This document shows, piece by piece, positions 19,152 through 48,431 of a DNA stretch of 64,000 bases. The notes below the pieces were generated by a model. That model was not told the origin of the DNA and did not search any database. It saw only the letters and a list, made by a program, of their open reading frames with translations. A program made the position numbers and the translations under genes. The stretch comes from a virus. The number at the start of each line of letters is the position of its first letter. Within the stretch, counting starts at the first letter, position 1. Location: positions 1 to 64,000 of the IMG/VR virus record IMGVR_UViG_3300034356_001231. One strand, written 5' to 3'.

Positions 19152-19221
19152 AGACCGTTAGCTCAATGGTAGAGCACCGCATTGTAGTGGTAGGTTCGAG
19201 GTTCGATTCCTCGGCGGTCCA
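19152..19221 (+). pseudogene. Degenerate tRNA / tRNA-like element
   Basis: Canonical D arm (GCTC AATGGTA GAGC) and T arm (CGAGG TTCGATT CCTCG) but irregular anticodon arm. Confidence 0.6.
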
Positions 19222-21373: not shown

Positions 21374-21592
21374 CTAGAAAAACAGGAAACAAATACAAAA
21401 CAGAAACATGTGGTAGATGCGGTCAAGCCCATTCAAACTATTCTGGAAAACTAGATAAAAACGATATTGAATATGTAATATGCGGTGCAACAAATAAAAG
21501 AATGAATGTATCAGGATATGGTATTGAGGGGTTTACTTCAGTTTATCCCACCGAATGGATAAAAGAAAACGACTTTAGAGGGGATTTTGGTA

Positions 21593-21931
21593 ATGAGCAA
21601 GATCGTATTAGTTGAAACAATTTCTATGTTTCGTCACGTTTATGCTATTGAGCTAAACGATGATGAGCCGAATGAATATGCACTTGATGATGTTGTTTAT
21701 GCTACTACTGGTGGTGATTCAAAACTTGAAGAATTTGCACAAGAACATGTTAGTGAGAATATCTTCTCGCATAGGGTCATTTCAGAAGAAGAATATATAA
21801 GGATGTTCGATGAGTTGAATCACTACGCAGCGCCATGGACGCCAGAACAAAAGAAGAAATTTATTTACAAAAAAGAAAATCATAGAGCAGCGGACTTTGG
21901 TCCAGACGTAGGGAAAGAGGTAGTAGAATAA
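21593..21931 (+). CDS. Conserved phage hypothetical protein
   Basis: VLVETISMFRH.Y..E, EF.Q.H..E. Confidence 0.6.
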   Translation: MSKIVLVETISMFRHVYAIELNDDEPNEYALDDVVYATTGGDSKLEEFAQEHVSENIFSHRVISEEEYIRMFDELNHYAAPWTPEQKKKFIYKKENHRAADFGPDVGKEVVE

Positions 21932-21943
21932 AATGAGGCTGGC

Positions 21944-22019
21944 ACTAAATAGTAATAATGTCCGTCGCGGAACGCCAATTCCCACGGACTCTAACGCTAA
22001 TTGGGAGCGCCAGCCTATG
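21944..22019 (+). promoter_or_regulatory. Late promoter plus structured RNA leader of HNH gene (copy A)
   Basis: ACTAAATA, then hairpin GTCCGT-C-G-C-GGAA-CGCCAA-TTCC-C-ACGGAC and RBS hairpin CGCT/AGCG; homologous to 47845-47915. Confidence 0.75.
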
Positions 22020-22637
22020 ACTATTTATCGTCGTATTTACGAACAACATTTTGGGCCTATTCCAAGAGATGAGGATGGGAGAACCTATGACGTACATCAT
22101 ATTGACGGAAACCGTAAGAATAACGATCCGTCAAATTTAGTTGCTCTAAGTATCAAAGAACATTATAAAGTCCATCATGAGCAGGGAGATTATGGTGCAG
22201 CTTTGAGAATTATTGCACGTATGAGAGTCCCACCAGAATTACTATCAGAACTTGGTAGAAAGAATGTAGAAGATCAGGTTGCAAAAGGAAAGCATCCTTT
22301 TCTTGGCGGAGAAGTTCAAAGAAAAAGCAATATAAAAAGAATTGAAGAAGGAACTCACAATTTTCTAGAAGAGGGATTTTCTTCAAAATATAATAGGAAA
22401 AGAGTTGAAGAGGGAACGCACAATCTTTTAGGCGAAAACAATCCAGTGCATAAAAAGATAGCGGCAGGAACCCATCATTTTCAGAATAAAGAATGGCACG
22501 AACAAAAGATGAAAAAGATTTTTGTTGAAGGTAAACATCCTTCACAAATAAAGAAATCTTGTCCTCATTGTGGAAATTTGTTTAGTGTGAATACCTTTAT
22601 CAAACACGTAAACGCATGTAAGAGCAGGAGCGAATAA
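22017..22637 (+). mobile_element. Free-standing HNH homing endonuclease
   Basis: DVHHIDGNRKNNDPSNL..EH..H; repeated GTHNFL/GKHPF modules; CPHC; immediately upstream of RNR. Confidence 0.85.
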
Positions 22638-24538
22638 TGGTAGATATGAATGTTTATCAACAGTATATTTTTAAGTCTAGATATTCTAGATACTTACCAG
22701 AAAAGAATCGTCGTGAGCATTGGGATGAAACTGTTGATAGATATATCAACTTTATGGTTGATAAGATCAAAGAAAAGCAGAATTATGAATTAGATGAAAA
22801 GACAAAAAAAGAATTACGTGATGCTATTTATAATTTAGAGGTCATGCCAAGTATGCGTAGTTTGATGACTGCTGGTAAGGCTCTTGATCGAGATAATGTT
22901 GCTGGTTATAATTGTTCGTATCTACCAATTGATGATCCTAAAGCATTCGATGAAGCAATGTGCATTCTTATGAATGGCACTGGTGTTGGATTTTCTGTTG
23001 AACGTCAGTATGTAAATAAGCTACCAGAAATTCCAGATCAGCTTTATGATTGTGATACTATTATCACAGTTCGTGATTCTAAGGAAGGTTGGTCAAAAGC
23101 ATTGCGTATGCTTATCTCATTGCTTTATGCTGGCGAAGTTCCAAAGTGGGATCTATCTAATCTACGACCAGCTGGTGCACCGCTGAAGACATTTGGTGGC
23201 CGTTCTTCTGGTCCAGAACCGCTAAATGATTTATTTAAGTTTGTTATCCGTATCTTTAAAAACGCACATGGTCGTAAGTTGACTTCTCTAGAGTGTCACG
23301 ATATTATGTGTAAGATCGGTGAAGTTGTTGTCGTCGGAGGCGTACGCCGATCCGCAATGATTAGTTTATCTAATCTCTCTGACGACCGCATGCGTCACGC
23401 AAAAGCAGGACAGTGGTGGGAAGCAAATGTTCAAAGAGCTCTATCAAACAATTCAGCAGTATATACCGAAAAGCCTGATGTCGGGCAGTTCATGGCAGAA
23501 TGGCTCGCGATCTATGAATCGAAGTCGGGCGAAAGAGGAATCTTTAGTCGAGACGCATCTCAGAGAGTGGCACGCAAAAACGGTAGAAGAGACCCATCTT
23601 TTGAATTCGGAACTAATCCCTGCTCTGAAATTATCTTGCGCCCTTATCAATTCTGTAACCTTACAGAAGTCGTTATACGAGACAGTGATACTGAAAATAG
23701 TTTGTCAAAGAAGATTAAGATTGCAACAATACTTGGTACATTTCAGTCAACTATGACATACTTCCCATATCTACGTAAGGTATGGCAGAAAAATACAGAA
23801 GAAGAAAGACTACTAGGCGTATCATTCACTGGTATCTATGATAATCCTTTGATGAACGATTACAATGATCCTGAGTTGCCTGCACGTCTAGAACGTCTAC
23901 GTCAGGTTGCTATTGATACGAATAAGGAATGGAGCGAGAAACTTGGAATTAATCAGTCAGTAGCTATTACCTGCGTTAAACCATCAGGAACAGTCAGTCA
24001 ATTGGTCCTTAGTCCTTCTGGCATTCATCCAGGCCATGATAGGTACTACATCCGCCGTGTGCGCAGCGACAATAAAGACCCACTCACCAATCATCTTATT
24101 TCTGCTGGCGTGCCTCATGAGCCAGACGTTACTAAGCCTCATTCTACTACTGTCTTTAGTTTCCCGATGAGACTACCAGATACTTCAATCACAAGAGAGA
24201 ATGTATCAGCTATTGACCATCTAGAACTTTGGTTGAAGTATCAGCGTCATTGGTGTGAGCATAAACCATCTGTTACTATTAATGTAACGGAAGCAGAATG
24301 GCCACGTGTTGGCGCATGGGTTTATGATCACTTTGATGAAATGTCAGGCGTTTCCTTCCTACCATATGATGGTGGTACATATCGTCAGGCGCCATATGAA
24401 ACCATCACAAAAGAAGAGTATGAAAACACAATCATAAATATTCCGACGACTGTTGATTGGGATAACTTGATTGAAATGGTTGACAACGTAGAAGGCGTTC
24501 AGACATTGGCTTGTAGTGCAGGAAATTGCGAGATATGA
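22637..24538 (+). CDS. nrdJ: Class II (adenosylcobalamin-dependent) ribonucleotide reductase
   Basis: RRSA, TNPCSEI, KPSGT, C-terminal CSAGNCEI; no beta subunit nearby. Confidence 0.9.
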   Translation: MVDMNVYQQYIFKSRYSRYLPEKNRREHWDETVDRYINFMVDKIKEKQNYELDEKTKKELRDAIYNLEVMPSMRSLMTAGKALDRDNVAGYNCSYLPIDDPKAFDEAMCILMNGTGVGFSVERQYVNKLPEIPDQLYDCDTIITVRDSKEGWSKALRMLISLLYAGEVPKWDLSNLRPAGAPLKTFGGRSSGPEPLNDLFKFVIRIFKNAHGRKLTSLECHDIMCKIGEVVVVGGVRRSAMISLSNLSDDRMRHAKAGQWWEANVQRALSNNSAVYTEKPDVGQFMAEWLAIYESKSGERGIFSRDASQRVARKNGRRDPSFEFGTNPCSEIILRPYQFCNLTEVVIRDSDTENSLSKKIKIATILGTFQSTMTYFPYLRKVWQKNTEEERLLGVSFTGIYDNPLMNDYNDPELPARLERLRQVAIDTNKEWSEKLGINQSVAITCVKPSGTVSQLVLSPSGIHPGHDRYYIRRVRSDNKDPLTNHLISAGVPHEPDVTKPHSTTVFSFPMRLPDTSITRENVSAIDHLELWLKYQRHWCEHKPSVTINVTEAEWPRVGAWVYDHFDEMSGVSFLPYDGGTYRQAPYETITKEEYENTIINIPTTVDWDNLIEMVDNVEGVQTLACSAGNCEI

Positions 24539-26612: not shown

Positions 26613-26689
26613 GGGGATGTAGAACAATTGGTTAGTTCCCGCTGCTCATAACAGCGTGGTTGCAGGTTCGAGTCCTGCCATCCCTACCA
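26613..26689 (+). tRNA. tRNA with CAT anticodon (Met or Ile2)
   Basis: Full cloverleaf, CGCTG-CTCATAA-CAGCG, encoded CCA. Confidence 0.85.
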
Positions 26690-41164: not shown

Positions 41165-41238
41165 TGGAGCGGGCGAAGGGAATCGAACCCTCGTCTTTAG
41201 TTTGGAAGACTATGGCTCTGCCATTGAGCTACACCCGC
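41165..41238 (-). tRNA. tRNA-Gly(TCC)
   Basis: Cloverleaf, loop CTTCCAA, CCA. Confidence 0.9.
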
Positions 41239-41365
41239 AATTAGTTCACACTTGTCATTATATTGATATCGCTTACAACAAAACCAATTACAATTGTTAT
41301 AAGAAAGAAACAAACAATCTTTATAATAGCACTAGTCTTGTGATCCATAATATATTTCCTTTAGT

Positions 41366-41440
41366 TGGCTCGGGGACCTGGACTCGAACCAAGAACGACT
41401 GAGTCAGAGTCAGCAGTTTTACCAATTAAACTATCCCCGA
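41366..41440 (-). tRNA. tRNA-Gln(CTG)
   Basis: Cloverleaf, loop CTCTGAC, CCA. Confidence 0.9.
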
Positions 41441-41441
41441 A

Positions 41442-41517
41442 TGGTGCTGGCAGAAGGAATCGAACCCTCGACCTGATGCTTACAAGGCAACTGCTCTACC
41501 GTCTGAGCTATACCAGC
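41442..41517 (-). tRNA. tRNA-Thr(TGT)
   Basis: Cloverleaf, loop CTTGTAA, CCA. Confidence 0.9.
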
Positions 41518-41518
41518 A

Positions 41519-41938
41519 TTAATACGCAGGAACCAAACAACTCTGAACCAGATCTGCCCCACCAAACAACTGGCCGAACAAATCATAAGGATCAACATAC
41601 ATTGCACAGTTCCGAGAAGCTGCTACAGGAACGTTCAGTGGATATCCTGGCGGCGAATAAATGTTAGACGCTTCTGGTGTTGGAACGTAACTATAAACAG
41701 GAACCAACGGTGCAGGCTGAACAGGAACTACTACAGGAACTGCGATCGTTGAACTAATAGGTCCAGGACCAGCAGGAAGATACTCGACCGCTACCGGAAC
41801 AGGAACGGTCTTTACAACCTTCTTGACTATTGGTCTTTGAACATTGATATTGCAGTTGTTACATTGATCAATGTTGTAGTTTCCGGCCAAAGCAGGAGTT
41901 GTAAGCATAAGAGCAAATGCTAATACTAGCTTTTTCAT
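41519..41938 (-). CDS. Exported Pro/Val-rich protein
   Basis: Signal peptide MKKLVLAFALMLTTPALA. Confidence 0.6.
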   Translation of the reverse strand: MKKLVLAFALMLTTPALAGNYNIDQCNNCNINVQRPIVKKVVKTVPVPVAVEYLPAGPGPISSTIAVPVVVPVQPAPLVPVYSYVPTPEASNIYSPPGYPLNVPVAASRNCAMYVDPYDLFGQLFGGADLVQSCLVPAY

Positions 41939-41939
41939 C

Positions 41940-42224
41940 TTAGTACCCGTAGTAATAATAACGACGAGGATTGTAGTAATAAGCAGGAGGAGCATATGGT
42001 GCATAGTATCCACCACCATAAGCTGGATAACCATATCCATACCCATAACCCTGCGAAGCAATAGCTCCACCAATTACACCACCAAGAATAGCAGCACCAG
42101 CCATTGCTCCATAGGCTGCACCATAACCATAACCATATCCATATCCGCCCCAATACTGAGCGTTAGCAGGTTGGGCAGTAGTGATACCAAAAACCAGTAG
42201 TAATGCAACAGCAAACTTTTTCAT
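41940..42224 (-). CDS. Exported Gly/Tyr-rich protein (BA14K-like)
   Basis: Signal peptide; GAAILGGVIGGAIA; late promoter at 42271-42278 (minus). Confidence 0.6.
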   Translation of the reverse strand: MKKFAVALLLVFGITTAQPANAQYWGGYGYGYGYGAAYGAMAGAAILGGVIGGAIASQGYGYGYGYPAYGGGYYAPYAPPAYYYNPRRYYYYGY

Positions 42225-42292
42225 TTCTCTTCTCCATAGGAAGTGGACTAACCATGGGCCCACACGAGTCTATTTATAGCGACCAACCTAAA

Positions 42293-42367
42293 TGGCTCCC
42301 TGAGAAGGATTCGAACCTCCGACCAAGTGATTAACAGTCACCTGCGCTACCGCTGCGCCACCAGGGA
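42293..42367 (-). tRNA. tRNA-Asn(GTT)
   Basis: Cloverleaf, loop CTGTTAA, CCA. Confidence 0.9.
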
Positions 42368-42543
42368 AAAGAACCAATAACCGCCACCAAACAACATAAC
42401 CAAAAAGATAATGTTCCAACAGATATCGTTGATCATATCTTTCTTTACTTGACACATCACTCGATCGCAACCGATTGGATACGTTCGAGTTACTCGAGAA
42501 CACTCTCTACAGACATAATAGTTAGGGAAGTTCATATCATTCA

Positions 42544-42579
42544 TATTTATATTATACCCTAGAACTGCAAAAAGTCAAG
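42544..42579 (-). promoter_or_regulatory. Tandem sigma70-like and late promoters inside tRNA array
   Basis: CTTGAC-N17-TATAAT directly followed by TATAAATA. Confidence 0.7.
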
Positions 42580-42655
42580 TGGTGCTGTCGGAGAGAATCG
42601 AACTCCCGACATGCGCATTACTAATGCGCTGCTCTACCAACTGAGCTACGACAGC
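42580..42655 (-). tRNA. tRNA-Thr(AGT)
   Basis: Cloverleaf, GCGCA-TTAGTAA-TGCGC, CCA. Confidence 0.9.
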
Positions 42656-42661
42656 ATTTAA

Positions 42662-42735
42662 TGGCACTGGCACCAGGTATCGATCCTAGTCTACAAGATC
42701 CACAATCTCGTGTGCTACCTTTACACTATGCCAGC
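42662..42735 (-). tRNA. tRNA-His(GTG), no encoded G-1
   Basis: Loop TTGTGGA; T loop ATCGATA; CCA. Confidence 0.85.
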
Positions 42736-42740
42736 AAAAC

Positions 42741-42815
42741 TGGATCGGGGACTAGGACTCGAACCTAGAAAGTCGGAACCAAAATCCGACGTTATGCCAA
42801 TTTAACTATCCCCGA
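42741..42815 (-). tRNA. tRNA-Gln(TTG)
   Basis: Loop TTTTGGT, CCA. Confidence 0.9.
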
Positions 42816-42816
42816 A

Positions 42817-42893
42817 TGGTGTCTCGAGTAGGAGTCAAACCTACAGCCTTCGGTTTCGTAGACCGATGCTCTATTCAGTTGAGCTATCGAGAC
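42817..42893 (-). tRNA. tRNA-Arg(ACG)
   Basis: Loop CTACGAA, CCA. Confidence 0.88.
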
Positions 42894-42894
42894 A

Positions 42895-42972
42895 TGGTGC
42901 CCTCGGTCGGATTCGAACCGACACTAGCGATGATTTTGAGTCAACGGCCTCTGCCAATTGGGCTACGAGGGC
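42895..42972 (-). tRNA. tRNA-Leu(CAA), short variable arm
   Basis: Loop CTCAAAA, CCA. Confidence 0.85.
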
Positions 42973-42977
42973 ATAAA

Positions 42978-43080
42978 TGATTGCGACAGGAATCGAACCT
43001 GTATCTCTGCCTTTTCTGTCCATATTGAATGTCTCCAATAGGCTCTTACATAGAGTGCTTTCCCATTAAACTACACAATC
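42978..43080 (-). ncRNA. tRNA-like RNA with enlarged anticodon domain
   Basis: Acceptor GATTGTG/CGCAATC, D arm, T arm ACAGG-TTCGATT-CCTGT; about 50 nt between D and T arms; no CCA. Confidence 0.65.
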
Positions 43081-43083
43081 AAA

Positions 43084-43159
43084 TGGTGCTTCCCCTTTGA
43101 ATCAAACAAAGTCCTTCTGTTCTTCAGACAGACGTGCGCATCAGCTACACCAGAGAAGC
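43084..43159 (-). tRNA. tRNA-Phe(GAA)
   Basis: Loop CTGAAGA; variant D/T loops; CCA. Confidence 0.8.
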
Positions 43160-43169
43160 ATATTTATAT

Positions 43170-43246
43170 TGGTGCGCCTGGTAAGACTCGAACTTACAAC
43201 ATCTGGTTTCTAAGACCAGCGCCTCTACCAATTGGGCTACGAGGGC
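43170..43246 (-). tRNA. tRNA-Leu(TAG), short variable arm, mismatched acceptor stem
   Basis: Loop CTTAGAA; acceptor GCCCTCG/CAGGCGC. Confidence 0.75.
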
Positions 43247-43317
43247 ATTATAATAAGTTGTCTGGTGCGCTATTCTATTCTAATAAGACATAGTGGAAGC
43301 GTGACAACTCTGTTTTC

Positions 43318-43393
43318 TGGTGCGAGATGACAGGATCGAACTGCCGACATTCTGCGTGTAAAACAGACGCTCTCCCAACTGAGCTAATCTCGC
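43318..43393 (-). tRNA. tRNA-Val(TAC)
   Basis: Loop TTTACAC, CCA. Confidence 0.9.
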
Positions 43394-43398
43394 ATTAA

Positions 43399-43474
43399 TG
43401 GTCTAGGTGGCTGGACTTGAACCAACAGCCTTCCCGCCCCAAACGGGATGCTCTGCCAATTGAGCTACACCTAG
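43399..43474 (-). tRNA. tRNA-Pro(TGG)
   Basis: Loop TTTGGGG, CCA. Confidence 0.9.
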
Positions 43475-43481
43475 ATAAAAC

Positions 43482-43556
43482 TGGATGCGGACCCATGAGT
43501 CGAACATGGCTCTCTTGCTTATGAGACAAGAATGGTCTCCGGACCACCTGACCGCA
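43482..43556 (-). tRNA. Atypical tRNA with CAT anticodon
   Basis: Loop CTCATAA, CCA; D arm TGGTC-CGGA-GACCA non-canonical. Confidence 0.7.
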
Positions 43557-43638
43557 AAACTTGCTGTCCCTCACGCCTTGGGACGAATGTTGTCTAGCAT
43601 TACGACACTCCATAAAGGCTGTGTATCTAGATCAAACA

Positions 43639-43713
43639 TGGTGCTGATAGTTGGAATTAAACCAACCTATAACGTCTTATGAGAACGCCTCGACCTCTTG
43701 CCGACCTACCAGC
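43639..43713 (-). tRNA. Atypical tRNA with CAT anticodon
   Basis: Loop CTCATAA, CCA; D arm TCGGC-AAGAG-GTCGA; T loop TTTAATT. Confidence 0.7.
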
Positions 43714-43717
43714 GAAT

Positions 43718-43807
43718 TGGCGGAGTGGTGGCGGAATCGAACCCCTGGCCTTTCGGCTCTACTGGTTTTCAAGACCAGACTAGTATCCCCGACTAGATAC
43801 GCACTCC
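43718..43807 (-). tRNA. tRNA-Ser(TGA), atypical acceptor/T arm
   Basis: Loop CTTGAAA, long variable arm, G73-CCA. Confidence 0.8.
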
Positions 43808-43861
43808 AATTATTCTACCTTTATAAGAGCCTCCCCGCTACCCAGCGTCACGACCATATGA

Positions 43862-43937
43862 TGGAGGATCCGGTCGGACTCGAACCGACAGCCTTGGGAT
43901 TAAAAGTCCCTTGCACCACCTATTGTGCTACGGATCC
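43862..43937 (-). tRNA. tRNA-Lys(TTT)
   Basis: Loop CTTTTAA, CCA. Confidence 0.9.
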
Positions 43938-43942
43938 ATAAA

Positions 43943-44018
43943 TGGTAGACCGAGAGGGATTCGAACCCACGACAAAGGGATTAAGAGTCCCCTGCTCTAC
44001 CAACTGAGCTATCGGTCC
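43943..44018 (-). tRNA. tRNA-Lys(CTT)
   Basis: Loop CTCTTAA, CCA. Confidence 0.9.
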
Positions 44019-44024
44019 ATAAAC

Positions 44025-44099
44025 TGGTGACCCCAACGAGATTCGAACTCGTATTGACGGCTTGAAAGGCCGCTGTCCTAACCATTAGACGATGGGGCC
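44025..44099 (-). tRNA. tRNA-Glu(TTC)
   Basis: Loop CTTTCAA, CCA. Confidence 0.9.
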
Positions 44100-44100
44100 G

Positions 44101-44174
44101 TGGTGCTTCCTGATGGTATCGATCCAACGTCTATCGCTTATCAAGCGATTGCTCTACCTTTGAGCTAAGGAAGC
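44101..44174 (-). tRNA. tRNA-Ile(GAT)
   Basis: Loop TTGATAA; T loop ATCGATA; CCA. Confidence 0.85.
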
Positions 44175-44175
44175 A

Positions 44176-44252
44176 TGGAGTGGATGATGGGACTCGAACC
44201 CACATATTAAGGTTTTGCAGACCTCTACCTAACCAATTCGGTGCACATCCAC
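44176..44252 (-). tRNA. tRNA-Cys(GCA)
   Basis: Loop CTGCAAA, U73-CCA. Confidence 0.88.
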
Positions 44253-47827: not shown

Positions 47828-47844
47828 GTCAAAACTCTCCATTA

Positions 47845-47915
47845 TATAAATAAGCGTAGGTCACGGGACGCCAATCCCTACCTACTCTAACGCTAAACAG
47901 GAGCGCCAGCATATG
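47845..47915 (+). promoter_or_regulatory. Late promoter plus structured RNA leader of GIY-YIG gene (copy B)
   Basis: TATAAATA, then GTAGGT-C-A-C-GGGA-CGCCAA-TCCC-T-ACCTAC and RBS hairpin CGCT/AGCG. Confidence 0.75.
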
Positions 47916-48431
47916 ATTATATATAAAATCACCAACCTTATCAATGGTAAATTTTACGTAGGTAAGTCCACAAAAACTACCGAAGAAAGATTTAAGCGTC
48001 ATTATTACAATCACAAATCTGGTAACACCTATCTCTATAAGTCGATGAGAAAACATGGCTTCGATAATTTTGTTATTGAAACAATAGAAGAAACCACATA
48101 TATCGACGAAAGAGAAAAGTTCTGGATTTCAGAACTGGCGCCACATTACAATATGACAAAAGGAGGAGATGGCGGTGATACTTCTAGCTCTCCAAATTTT
48201 ATCGAAGGCATAAAGAAAAGACCGCCACCACCTCCCACTTATGGTATGCTCGGAAAGAAACAATCTGATAAGTTTTTTGAAGCTATCAGAAAATCCAATA
48301 GTCGCCCAGTTATGTGCGAAGGAAAAAGATATGCTTCTATCAACGAAGCTCAAGAAGCATATCCTGGTATTTCTATTCGCAAAAGATTAGACAATCCAAA
48401 GTATTCCGAGTTTTATAGATTAGAAAGTTGA
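47913..48431 (+). mobile_element. Free-standing GIY-YIG homing endonuclease
   Basis: IYKITN..FYVG, YNMTKGGDG; antisense insertion between gp45 and gp44. Confidence 0.88.

Follow-up and report, generated by a model that had tools for sequence, protein, structure and literature searches.

Why do two unrelated homing endonuclease genes in one phage genome begin with the same structured element, and which of the two DNA strands does that structure serve? The question arises from a 64,000-nucleotide stretch of viral DNA, analysed here at its full length and called the window, which belongs to an 87.8-kb contig from an uncultured, distant relative of phage T4; its clamp loader shares 62% identity with the protein of Stenotrophomonas phage DLP_6 and 55-58% with the clamp loaders of Methylophilales phage Melnitz and of Synechococcus phages. 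One copy of the element (copy A, 21945-22019) stands before an open reading frame (ORF) for an HNH_3 homing endonuclease of 206 aa that starts MTIY (22017-22637, plus strand). The other (copy B, 47845-47915) stands before an ORF for a GIY-YIG homing endonuclease of 172 aa that starts MIIY (47913-48431, plus strand) and lies antisense between the sliding-clamp and clamp-loader genes. Both genes are tightly packed against their neighbours: the HNH stop codon TAA shares its last A with the ATG of a ribonucleotide reductase gene (22635-22639), and the GIY-YIG ORF overlaps the convergent clamp gene by 12 bases at the 3' ends (48420-48431).

Phage genomes tolerate homing endonucleases as parasites, and to our knowledge the control by which their expression is kept harmless has been described for only a few T-even genes, in each case as sense-strand hairpins. 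An earlier reading made from the letters of the window (the sequence-only reading) had likewise placed the conserved fold in the nuclease mRNA, as a leader that binds a protein or ligand, or else as an RNA cofactor. The analysis below supports that mRNA-leader reading only in part.

A mobile element before nuclease genes of several families

When the two copies are aligned, their first hairpins differ at eight bases, all of which fall within four base pairs and every one of which is compensatory, just as the sequence-only reading had it; the positions and hairpin strings that it quoted are also exact in the sequence. Beyond this hairpin both copies continue UCUAA-CGCU-N7-AGCG-CCAGC-NU-AUG, and the second hairpin does overlap the ribosome-binding site, with GGAG lying partly inside it in both copies. 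A pattern that spans 43 positions of the element has exactly two sites in the window, copies A and B, against none in 100 shuffles, and neither a pattern search nor a model search found a third copy in the remaining 23.8 kb of the same viral contig.

The element matched no known Rfam family: at gathering score the whole window gave tRNAs only, and at E-values up to 10 there was nothing for copy A and only three chance-level matches, of at most 14 bits, for copy B. Candidate resemblances to K-turns, T-loops, preQ1-like structures and ribozymes had no Rfam support and were dropped. A blastn search of named phages with both nuclease regions and the 86-nt element returned no real match, only two AT-rich matches of 20-23 nt (E 0.7-9). 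A covariance model of the element (R2) had no match in Stenotrophomonas phage DLP_6, Methylophilales phage Melnitz-3 or Synechococcus phage S-H38, the three named phages nearest to this one, where an empty outcome is uninformative. The tRNA genes of the window number 20, of which 18 form a single minus-strand cluster (41168-44252) and the others lie at 19152-19221 and 26613-26686 (plus strand); the one at 42978-43080 is long, possibly through a long variable arm or an intron.

Further homologs were found among uncultured viral contigs. Two pattern scans of these contigs, together with a covariance model seeded from six hand-aligned members, gave 75 distinct elements in 65 sources. The first scan asked for the second hairpin and the Shine-Dalgarno core and yielded 73 loci; together with the window copies this made 76 matches, which reduce to 42 distinct elements. 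The second scan required only the promoter and the first four codons, leaving the interior free, and yielded 57 loci with 35 distinct elements; all 35 have the hairpin-linker-hairpin interior, and 22 of them do so without the exact core of the first scan. A further 11 of the 75, missed by both patterns, were found by the model, and the family is recovered by covariance models of the gene strand and of the complement strand alike. A strict first-hairpin pattern that demanded a CGCCAA loop found nothing elsewhere because the loop is not conserved: the loop columns vary freely across the 75 members, so that the loop invariance claimed earlier is an artefact of comparing two sequences. One candidate was set aside. 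A loose 19-base pattern matched at 2930-2990 of contig L003, where TCTAACGCT-N7-AGCG lies just before an HNH ORF on a high-GC contig with a relaxase-like ORF upstream; neither covariance model finds this contig, and from its sequence context the match is probably due to chance.

An ORF of 53-244 aa follows 70 of the 75 elements, two of the remainder being cut by a contig end and three being degenerate. By sequence motifs these ORFs fall into HNH_3, HNH, GIY-YIG, and SegE-like or NUMOD3-only classes, and a Pfam search with the first 42 gave NUMOD3 (16), HNH_3 (9), HNH (6), GIY-YIG (4), HNH_5 (3) and SegE_GIY-YIG (2), a tally with which the motif classes and ten individual scans agree. Motif classes and Pfam were used in place of protein clustering; single-linkage clustering of the downstream proteins was uninformative, with 64 of 70 merged through shared DNA-binding modules. 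A subset of the ORFs carries only NUMOD3 or I-TevI-type DNA-binding modules. Such ORFs, which have no recognisable nuclease domain and begin MSIYCP(L/F)(S/A)EALGI or similar, are seen at L049:4587-5000, L017:1930-2382, L051:6473-6925 and L026:5285-5704 and in about a dozen other members; judged from their sequences, they may be remnants of endonucleases or else independent DNA-binding proteins. Among the degenerate cassettes, one (L101:4304-4380) has kept the bulged hairpin and lost the second hairpin and the ORF, and two (L082:8800-8884 and L083:1833-1922) head ORFs of only 4 and 19 codons.

The site of copy B makes the mobility of the cassette visible. We collected 80 sliding-clamp relatives, 73 of which also have the clamp-loader gene on the same locus. 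The spacer between the two genes is 578-612 nt long and holds a GIY-YIG gene with the element at 7 of these 73 loci, is only 33-49 nt long at 33, and measures 250-391 nt with no model match within it at the other 33. In two of the last group (L124:3151-3416 and L129:3151-3427) the insert encodes a small Cys-rich ORF on the strand of its neighbours, without the cassette. Judged from these spacer sequences the cassette is an insertion, and the contrast between 7 occupied and 66 unoccupied loci upholds the proposal that a portable covarying element travels with homing-endonuclease cassettes of unrelated families.

Covariation on the strand opposite the gene

On the gene strand, the consensus of the 75 elements starts with (C/A)TAAATA, followed by a hairpin (P1) of 6 bp, a C-R-C opposite Y, and 4 bp. 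A linker, (C)UCUAA, leads to a 4-bp hairpin (P2) that contains GGAG, and then come YCAGC, 0-3 nt and AUG-NNU-AUU-UAU. Every one of the 11 pairs in the first hairpin, and of the four in the second, changes on both sides, with 95.8% of P1 and 97.3% of P2 paired, and each of the two bulged Cs is invariant (75 of 75), as the comparison of the two window copies had indicated. An alternative sense pairing in which CUCU would act as an anti-Shine-Dalgarno sequence against GGAG was rejected; the variants CCCUAA and ACUAUC break it without compensation.

The same hairpins can be read on the complement, and there the fit is closer. The 19 pairs of the complement-strand fold are standard in 99.6% of 1414 cells, 16 of them change on both sides, and none of 500 shuffles reaches any of five measures of the fold. 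Read on the gene strand, the same 19 pairs are standard in 87.8% of cells, and their extra pair types are no better than those of shuffles (265 of 500); each of the two alignments was fitted to its own model. The cells that are not Watson-Crick pairs show the asymmetry directly: 169 are A·C in the sense orientation (33 + 7 + 129) and only 3 are sense G·U (1 + 1 + 1). Within the two hairpins P1 and P2 alone the counts are 40 and 2. The family sequences are related and such cell counts therefore overstate the number of independent events; among 27 representatives, one per 85%-identity cluster, there are 14 A·C against 2 G·U outside the two fixed wobble columns. The internal R:Y pair of the bulged hairpin is GC in 30 elements, AU in 23, A·C in 22 and G·U in none (Fisher 3.8e-7), and its A·C cases are spread over 15 different stem backgrounds. 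Were selection acting on a sense leader, G·U should be tolerated and A·C removed; since the opposite is seen, the substitution pattern fits the complementary strand.

The bases CUAA and CCAG point the same way. They had passed for unpaired invariant bases; on the minus strand, and only there, they form a helix (CUGG/UUAG) with one C:G, one U:A and two G·U pairs, which extends the second hairpin to 8 bp and whose last pair is also found as AU (14), UA (2) and GC (2). In copy A this 8-bp helix, CUGGCGCU/AGCGUUAG with a 7-nt loop, occupies 21991-22013 on the minus strand and covers GGAG at 22004-22007; on the plus strand only the four pairs of CGCU/AGCG form. The corresponding helix of copy B, also with a 7-nt loop, lies at 47887-47909 on the minus strand over GGAG at 47900-47903. 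The bulged hairpins (P1 in the sense orientation) are at 21960-21989 in copy A, with its 6 bp, C-R-C opposite Y, and 4 bp, and at 47856-47885 in copy B, both given for the minus strand.

Folding energies agree in the main with this assignment. The minus-strand core is the more stable in 74 of the 75 elements, by a mean of 5.0 kcal/mol, and the window copies A and B reach -23.6 and -23.7 kcal/mol on the complement against -19.5 and -17.9 kcal/mol on the gene strand. Considered by itself, the 4-bp hairpin slightly favours the gene strand, where it is the more stable in 70 of 75 elements, and shuffle-based z-scores for the folds of copies A and B do not tell one strand from the other. In sum, the covariation fits an RNA folded from the strand opposite the gene, and the proportions of standard pairs and the A·C excess speak against a conserved fold that acts as a protein- or ligand-binding mRNA leader or as an RNA cofactor. 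Covarying 'leaders' in general need such a strand test.

Two facing promoter motifs and a predicted antisense RNA

The sequence-only reading placed a late promoter before each gene. A motif does stand before both copies, but that of copy A is ACTAAATA rather than the canonical TATAAATA: the late-promoter-like motif CTAAATAG lies at 21945-21952 on the plus strand. Copy B has TATAAATA itself at 47845-47852 (plus strand), three bases from the CAT that starts the longest minus-strand ORF for the clamp loader. At the motif level, a forward TAAATA is found in at least 70 of the 75 elements. The further claim that the structure lies wholly downstream of the promoter does not hold, since the promoter has its complement in codons 2-4, which themselves read as a promoter on the reverse strand.

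The complement of codons 2-4 reads ATAAATA, matching NATAAATA, which is reported as a late promoter of T4-like cyanophages in PMC2984593. A TAAATA-type motif on the opposite strand thus stands inside the 5' end of its would-be target in 70 of 75 elements (motif level), with 6 nt between its end and the 8-bp helix in 40 elements and 7-11 nt in 30; it is absent in five, copy B among them. In copy A the reverse-strand motif is ATAAATAG, within HNH codons 2-4 (22021-22028, minus strand), and by its sequence it is predicted to be the promoter of an antisense RNA running from about 22016 down to about 21946. No TAAATA motif occurs on the minus strand of the first codons of copy B; a sigma-70-like TTGATA-17-TATAAT (11 of 12 matching) lies in the first GIY-YIG codons and is aimed into the cassette (47916-47944, minus strand). 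In the window as a whole HTAAATAR is rarer than expected (19 sites vs 37.3 ± 5.6), and copy A has one such site per strand (21945 plus, 22028 minus); over the whole contig many TAAATA motifs are found 16-70 nt before ORF starts.

The codons that hold the reverse motif are strikingly uniform. In the 70 ORFs of at least 30 aa, codon 3 is ATT in 58, ATA in 4 and never ATC, and codon 4 is TAT in 65 and never TAC. Elsewhere in the same ORFs ATT accounts for 307 of 768 Ile codons (40%) and TAT for 333 of 484 Tyr codons (69%). The synonymous sites of codons 3 and 4 are thus frozen, and the M-x-I-Y start shared by these proteins reflects a constraint at the nucleotide level.

At the other end of the element, the 10 nt that follow the 3' hairpin on the minus strand contain a mean of 5.3 U, typically as AUCUAUUUA, which is the complement of the forward promoter and makes an interrupted U-tract; in copy A the complement of the forward motif forms this tail. 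From the modelled fold, the bulged hairpin of copy A is predicted to be the terminator-like 3' hairpin of an antisense RNA. A terminator scan flagged neither copy under a rule (unbulged stem plus 5 T in 8) that is blind to bulged hairpins. Three public runs searched over 21500-22700, available as contigs that carry no strand, end or level information, contain pieces of relatives. In one of them, a metatranscriptomic run, a contig of 105 nt that covers the hairpin has a word depth of 41 against 3-8 for ORF pieces, a figure that gives no strand information and comes from a cassette that is multi-copy.

From this arrangement we give a probability of about 0.55 to the reading that the cassette holds two facing promoters and yields a ~65-nt antisense RNA complementary to the ribosome-binding region of the nuclease. 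It would then be a portable control cassette with a role for each strand, joined to the 5' end of free-standing homing-endonuclease genes in an uncultured clade of T4-like phages. The gene strand would supply the late promoter, the Shine-Dalgarno GGAG and the first four codons, and the opposite strand a promoter within codons 2-4 (ATAAATA in most members, the sigma-70-like sequence in copy B), so placed that the facing promoters would lie about 70 bp apart, one for the nuclease mRNA and the other for the antisense RNA. Firing back across the leader, the reverse promoter would produce an RNA of some 60-70 nt. Its 5' part would be the 8-bp hairpin, whose stem and loop carry CUCC, the complement of GGAG, and its 3' part the GC-rich bulged hairpin with the U-rich tail, which together would resemble a terminator. 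Between the 5' end of the nuclease mRNA and its start codon, the complementarity of such an RNA to the mRNA would be perfect, and we infer that it would pair with the mRNA, block ribosome binding and perhaps trigger cleavage, thereby keeping the nuclease low; convergent transcription may add interference. In addition, pairing of the forward promoter with codons 2-4 in sense RNA may hide the AUG of read-through transcripts, as in the classical T4 arrangement, and fold models allow that this sense-strand mask may coexist with the antisense RNA. In the CopA RNA of plasmid R1, the bulges of antisense hairpins make target binding faster and guard against RNase III, and by analogy the two invariant bulges of the cassette would fit a role of this kind.

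A broader proposal is more speculative, and we put it forward tentatively: that homing-endonuclease expression in a large uncultured clade of T4-like phages could have its general brake in a dedicated family of cis-antisense RNAs of ~65 nt, transcribed from a late promoter in the first codons, that each of these RNAs, the 8-bp helix and its flanks being nearly identical between cassettes, could also control the genome's other cassettes in trans, and that the cassette could be a plug-in module for any nuclease ORF. If true, it would allow copy-number control like the multicopy inhibition of IS10 and would let any nuclease ORF settle in a phage genome. The reading with two facing promoters would by itself explain the M-x-I-Y start of unrelated nucleases, those codons being a promoter, and would place the predicted RNA among very few antisense RNAs known in virulent T4-like phages; a single portable cassette in the service of at least five nuclease families would add a new layer to the control of these genes. 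The cassette is also an easy marker for annotating these genes in metagenomes.

Precedents and alternative explanations

A late promoter with RNA structure before the gene is established for T-even endonucleases: late promoters and hairpins that sequester the ribosome-binding site are described for I-TevI, I-TevII, I-TevIII, segB and mobE of T-even phages and Aeh1 (PMC2988022). The cassette resembles these in having a late promoter that sits just upstream of a free-standing or intron-encoded endonuclease ORF and RNA structure at the start region that is thought to limit expression, and here too the promoter-containing 5' arm could be missing from late transcripts. It differs in being one conserved cassette for at least five nuclease families, with two covarying hairpins downstream of the promoter whose substitutions fit the opposite strand, with a second promoter motif inside codons 2-4, and with a possible mask that covers the AUG and codons 2-4 and not the Shine-Dalgarno site. 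Closer in setting are the metagenomic 'fractured genes' of Dassa et al. 2009, in which hairpins with TATAAATA lie upstream of GIY-YIG and Vsr-like endonucleases (PMC2677866). The hairpin was present in 15 of 16 endonuclease 5' regions and the late-promoter motif in 10, and two conserved, mutually complementary nucleotide motifs were common to different endonuclease types. These loci share with ours the environmental T4-like phages, the late-promoter motif and the hairpin before endonucleases; the hairpin was read as a sense-strand translational hairpin, with no antisense reading raised in the available text. Compared by description, it may be the same element or a sister of it.

For antisense control of a mobile nuclease-type gene the precedent is RNA-OUT of IS10/Tn10, a 69-nt stem-loop RNA, made from an opposite-strand promoter, that complements the translation initiation region and keeps ribosomes from binding (PMC5006887); RNA-OUT acts in trans, and its control rises with copy number (PMC5006887). 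The features that define such a system, a facing promoter motif on the opposite strand and a small stable fold that lies over GGAG and reaches the AUG, are found in the cassette at the level of motifs and folds. In both, a nuclease-type gene of a mobile element stands under a small opposite-strand RNA, which for the cassette is a prediction. There is no sequence or Rfam relationship between the two, the cassette serves a phage homing endonuclease and not a transposase, and its predicted RNA has two hairpins and phage late-type promoters. In a T4-like phage, the ~225-nt antisense RNA CfrI of cyanophage S-PM2 links an endonuclease gene to psbA at a single locus (PMC2984593, PMC12197685). Like CfrI, the RNA predicted here would lie opposite a homing-endonuclease gene in a T4-like phage; unlike CfrI, it would be part of a module of ~65 nt that heads many endonuclease genes. 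CfrI is given as the sole antisense RNA linked to a homing endonuclease in virulent T4-like phages in a 2025 review (PMC12197685), and no description of an antisense cassette on homing-endonuclease genes was found in the literature searched.

Given the T-even precedents, the element could instead act as a sense-strand leader, with P1 and P2 folding in the nuclease mRNA and the promoter pairing with the AUG and codons 2-4 to mask the start in read-through transcripts. Late transcripts would then begin at the base of P1, which would stabilise their 5' end, and the conserved single strands would bind protein. The mechanism is established for I-TevI, segB and mobE (PMC2988022), and P1 and P2 covary on the gene strand too. 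For L026, a typical member, RNAfold unaided predicts the promoter/codon helix together with P1 and P2. When the 5' arm is removed, the predicted probability over 71 elements that the AUG is unpaired goes up from 0.30 to 0.47, and that of codons 2-4 from 0.34 to 0.69, in a calculation whose assumed late start is one base off and which clips the first hairpin in some members. The reverse motif itself may be conserved only through pairing with the forward promoter in sense RNA, since the bases on either side of the two TAAATA motifs covary, with complementarity in 55 of 59 elements (41.5 when permuted), and the non-Watson-Crick cells of this helix are mostly sense G·U rather than A·C (71 vs 9). 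Against this leader stands the excess of A·C over G·U in P1 and P2, where sense selection predicts the reverse, and such a leader leaves CUAA and CCAG as unexplained invariant bases. The predicted accessibility of the Shine-Dalgarno site, moreover, is the same in the long and late forms (0.41 and 0.41), and about half of the cassettes, copy B included, face away from the upstream ORF (32 opposite and 34 same, a crude count), which makes read-through from that ORF impossible. We consider this leader reading unlikely.

The preference for the minus strand could also arise if the fold served the neighbouring host genes as an insulator or terminator and leader, stopping opposite-strand transcription from entering or leaving the cassette and so sparing the neighbours, with no part in regulating the nuclease. 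Four relatives with an empty clamp/clamp-loader site (L127, L140, L147 and L185) do carry a GC hairpin and a T-run in their 33-36-nt spacer, and the window cassette replaces this hairpin and puts a minus-strand bulged hairpin with a U-rich tail just before the clamp-loader start. We nevertheless regard this account as distinctly improbable: it leaves the 8-bp 5' helix, the inward promoter-like motif and the perfect overlap with the ribosome-binding site unexplained, and relative to its neighbours the cassette is found in either orientation. Nor does the covariation by itself demand RNA, as compensatory changes also preserve DNA hairpins, and in a mobile cassette inverted repeats might act in single-stranded or cruciform DNA during recombination or homing, or as sites for DNA-binding proteins, with G·T pairs tolerated in the single-stranded DNA of one strand. 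An element set exactly between promoter motifs, overlapping a ribosome-binding site and common to unrelated nuclease families with different DNA-binding modules is not what this would lead one to expect. We know of no mechanism that requires such a DNA-level element, and we hold this explanation to be very improbable.

Two minor features adjoin the forward promoters of the window copies. Upstream of the copy A promoter, AGGCUGGC / AGGCTGGC (21936-21943) is complementary to GCCAGCCU / GCCAGCCT (22010-22017), which lies between the Shine-Dalgarno site and the ATG, and this pairing is present in the predicted long-form fold; AGGCUGGC:GCCAGCCU is, in the model, a possible extra mask in read-through transcripts. 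Similar GCTGG words also occur upstream in L012. Beside copy B, the longest clamp-loader ORF starts MESFDMDEH (47828-47842, minus strand), and its relatives start at the second Met (MNEEF...), so that the clamp-loader start region directly abuts the nuclease promoter; from its position in the sequence, GGAGAG between the two Met codons is probably the Shine-Dalgarno site of the clamp loader.
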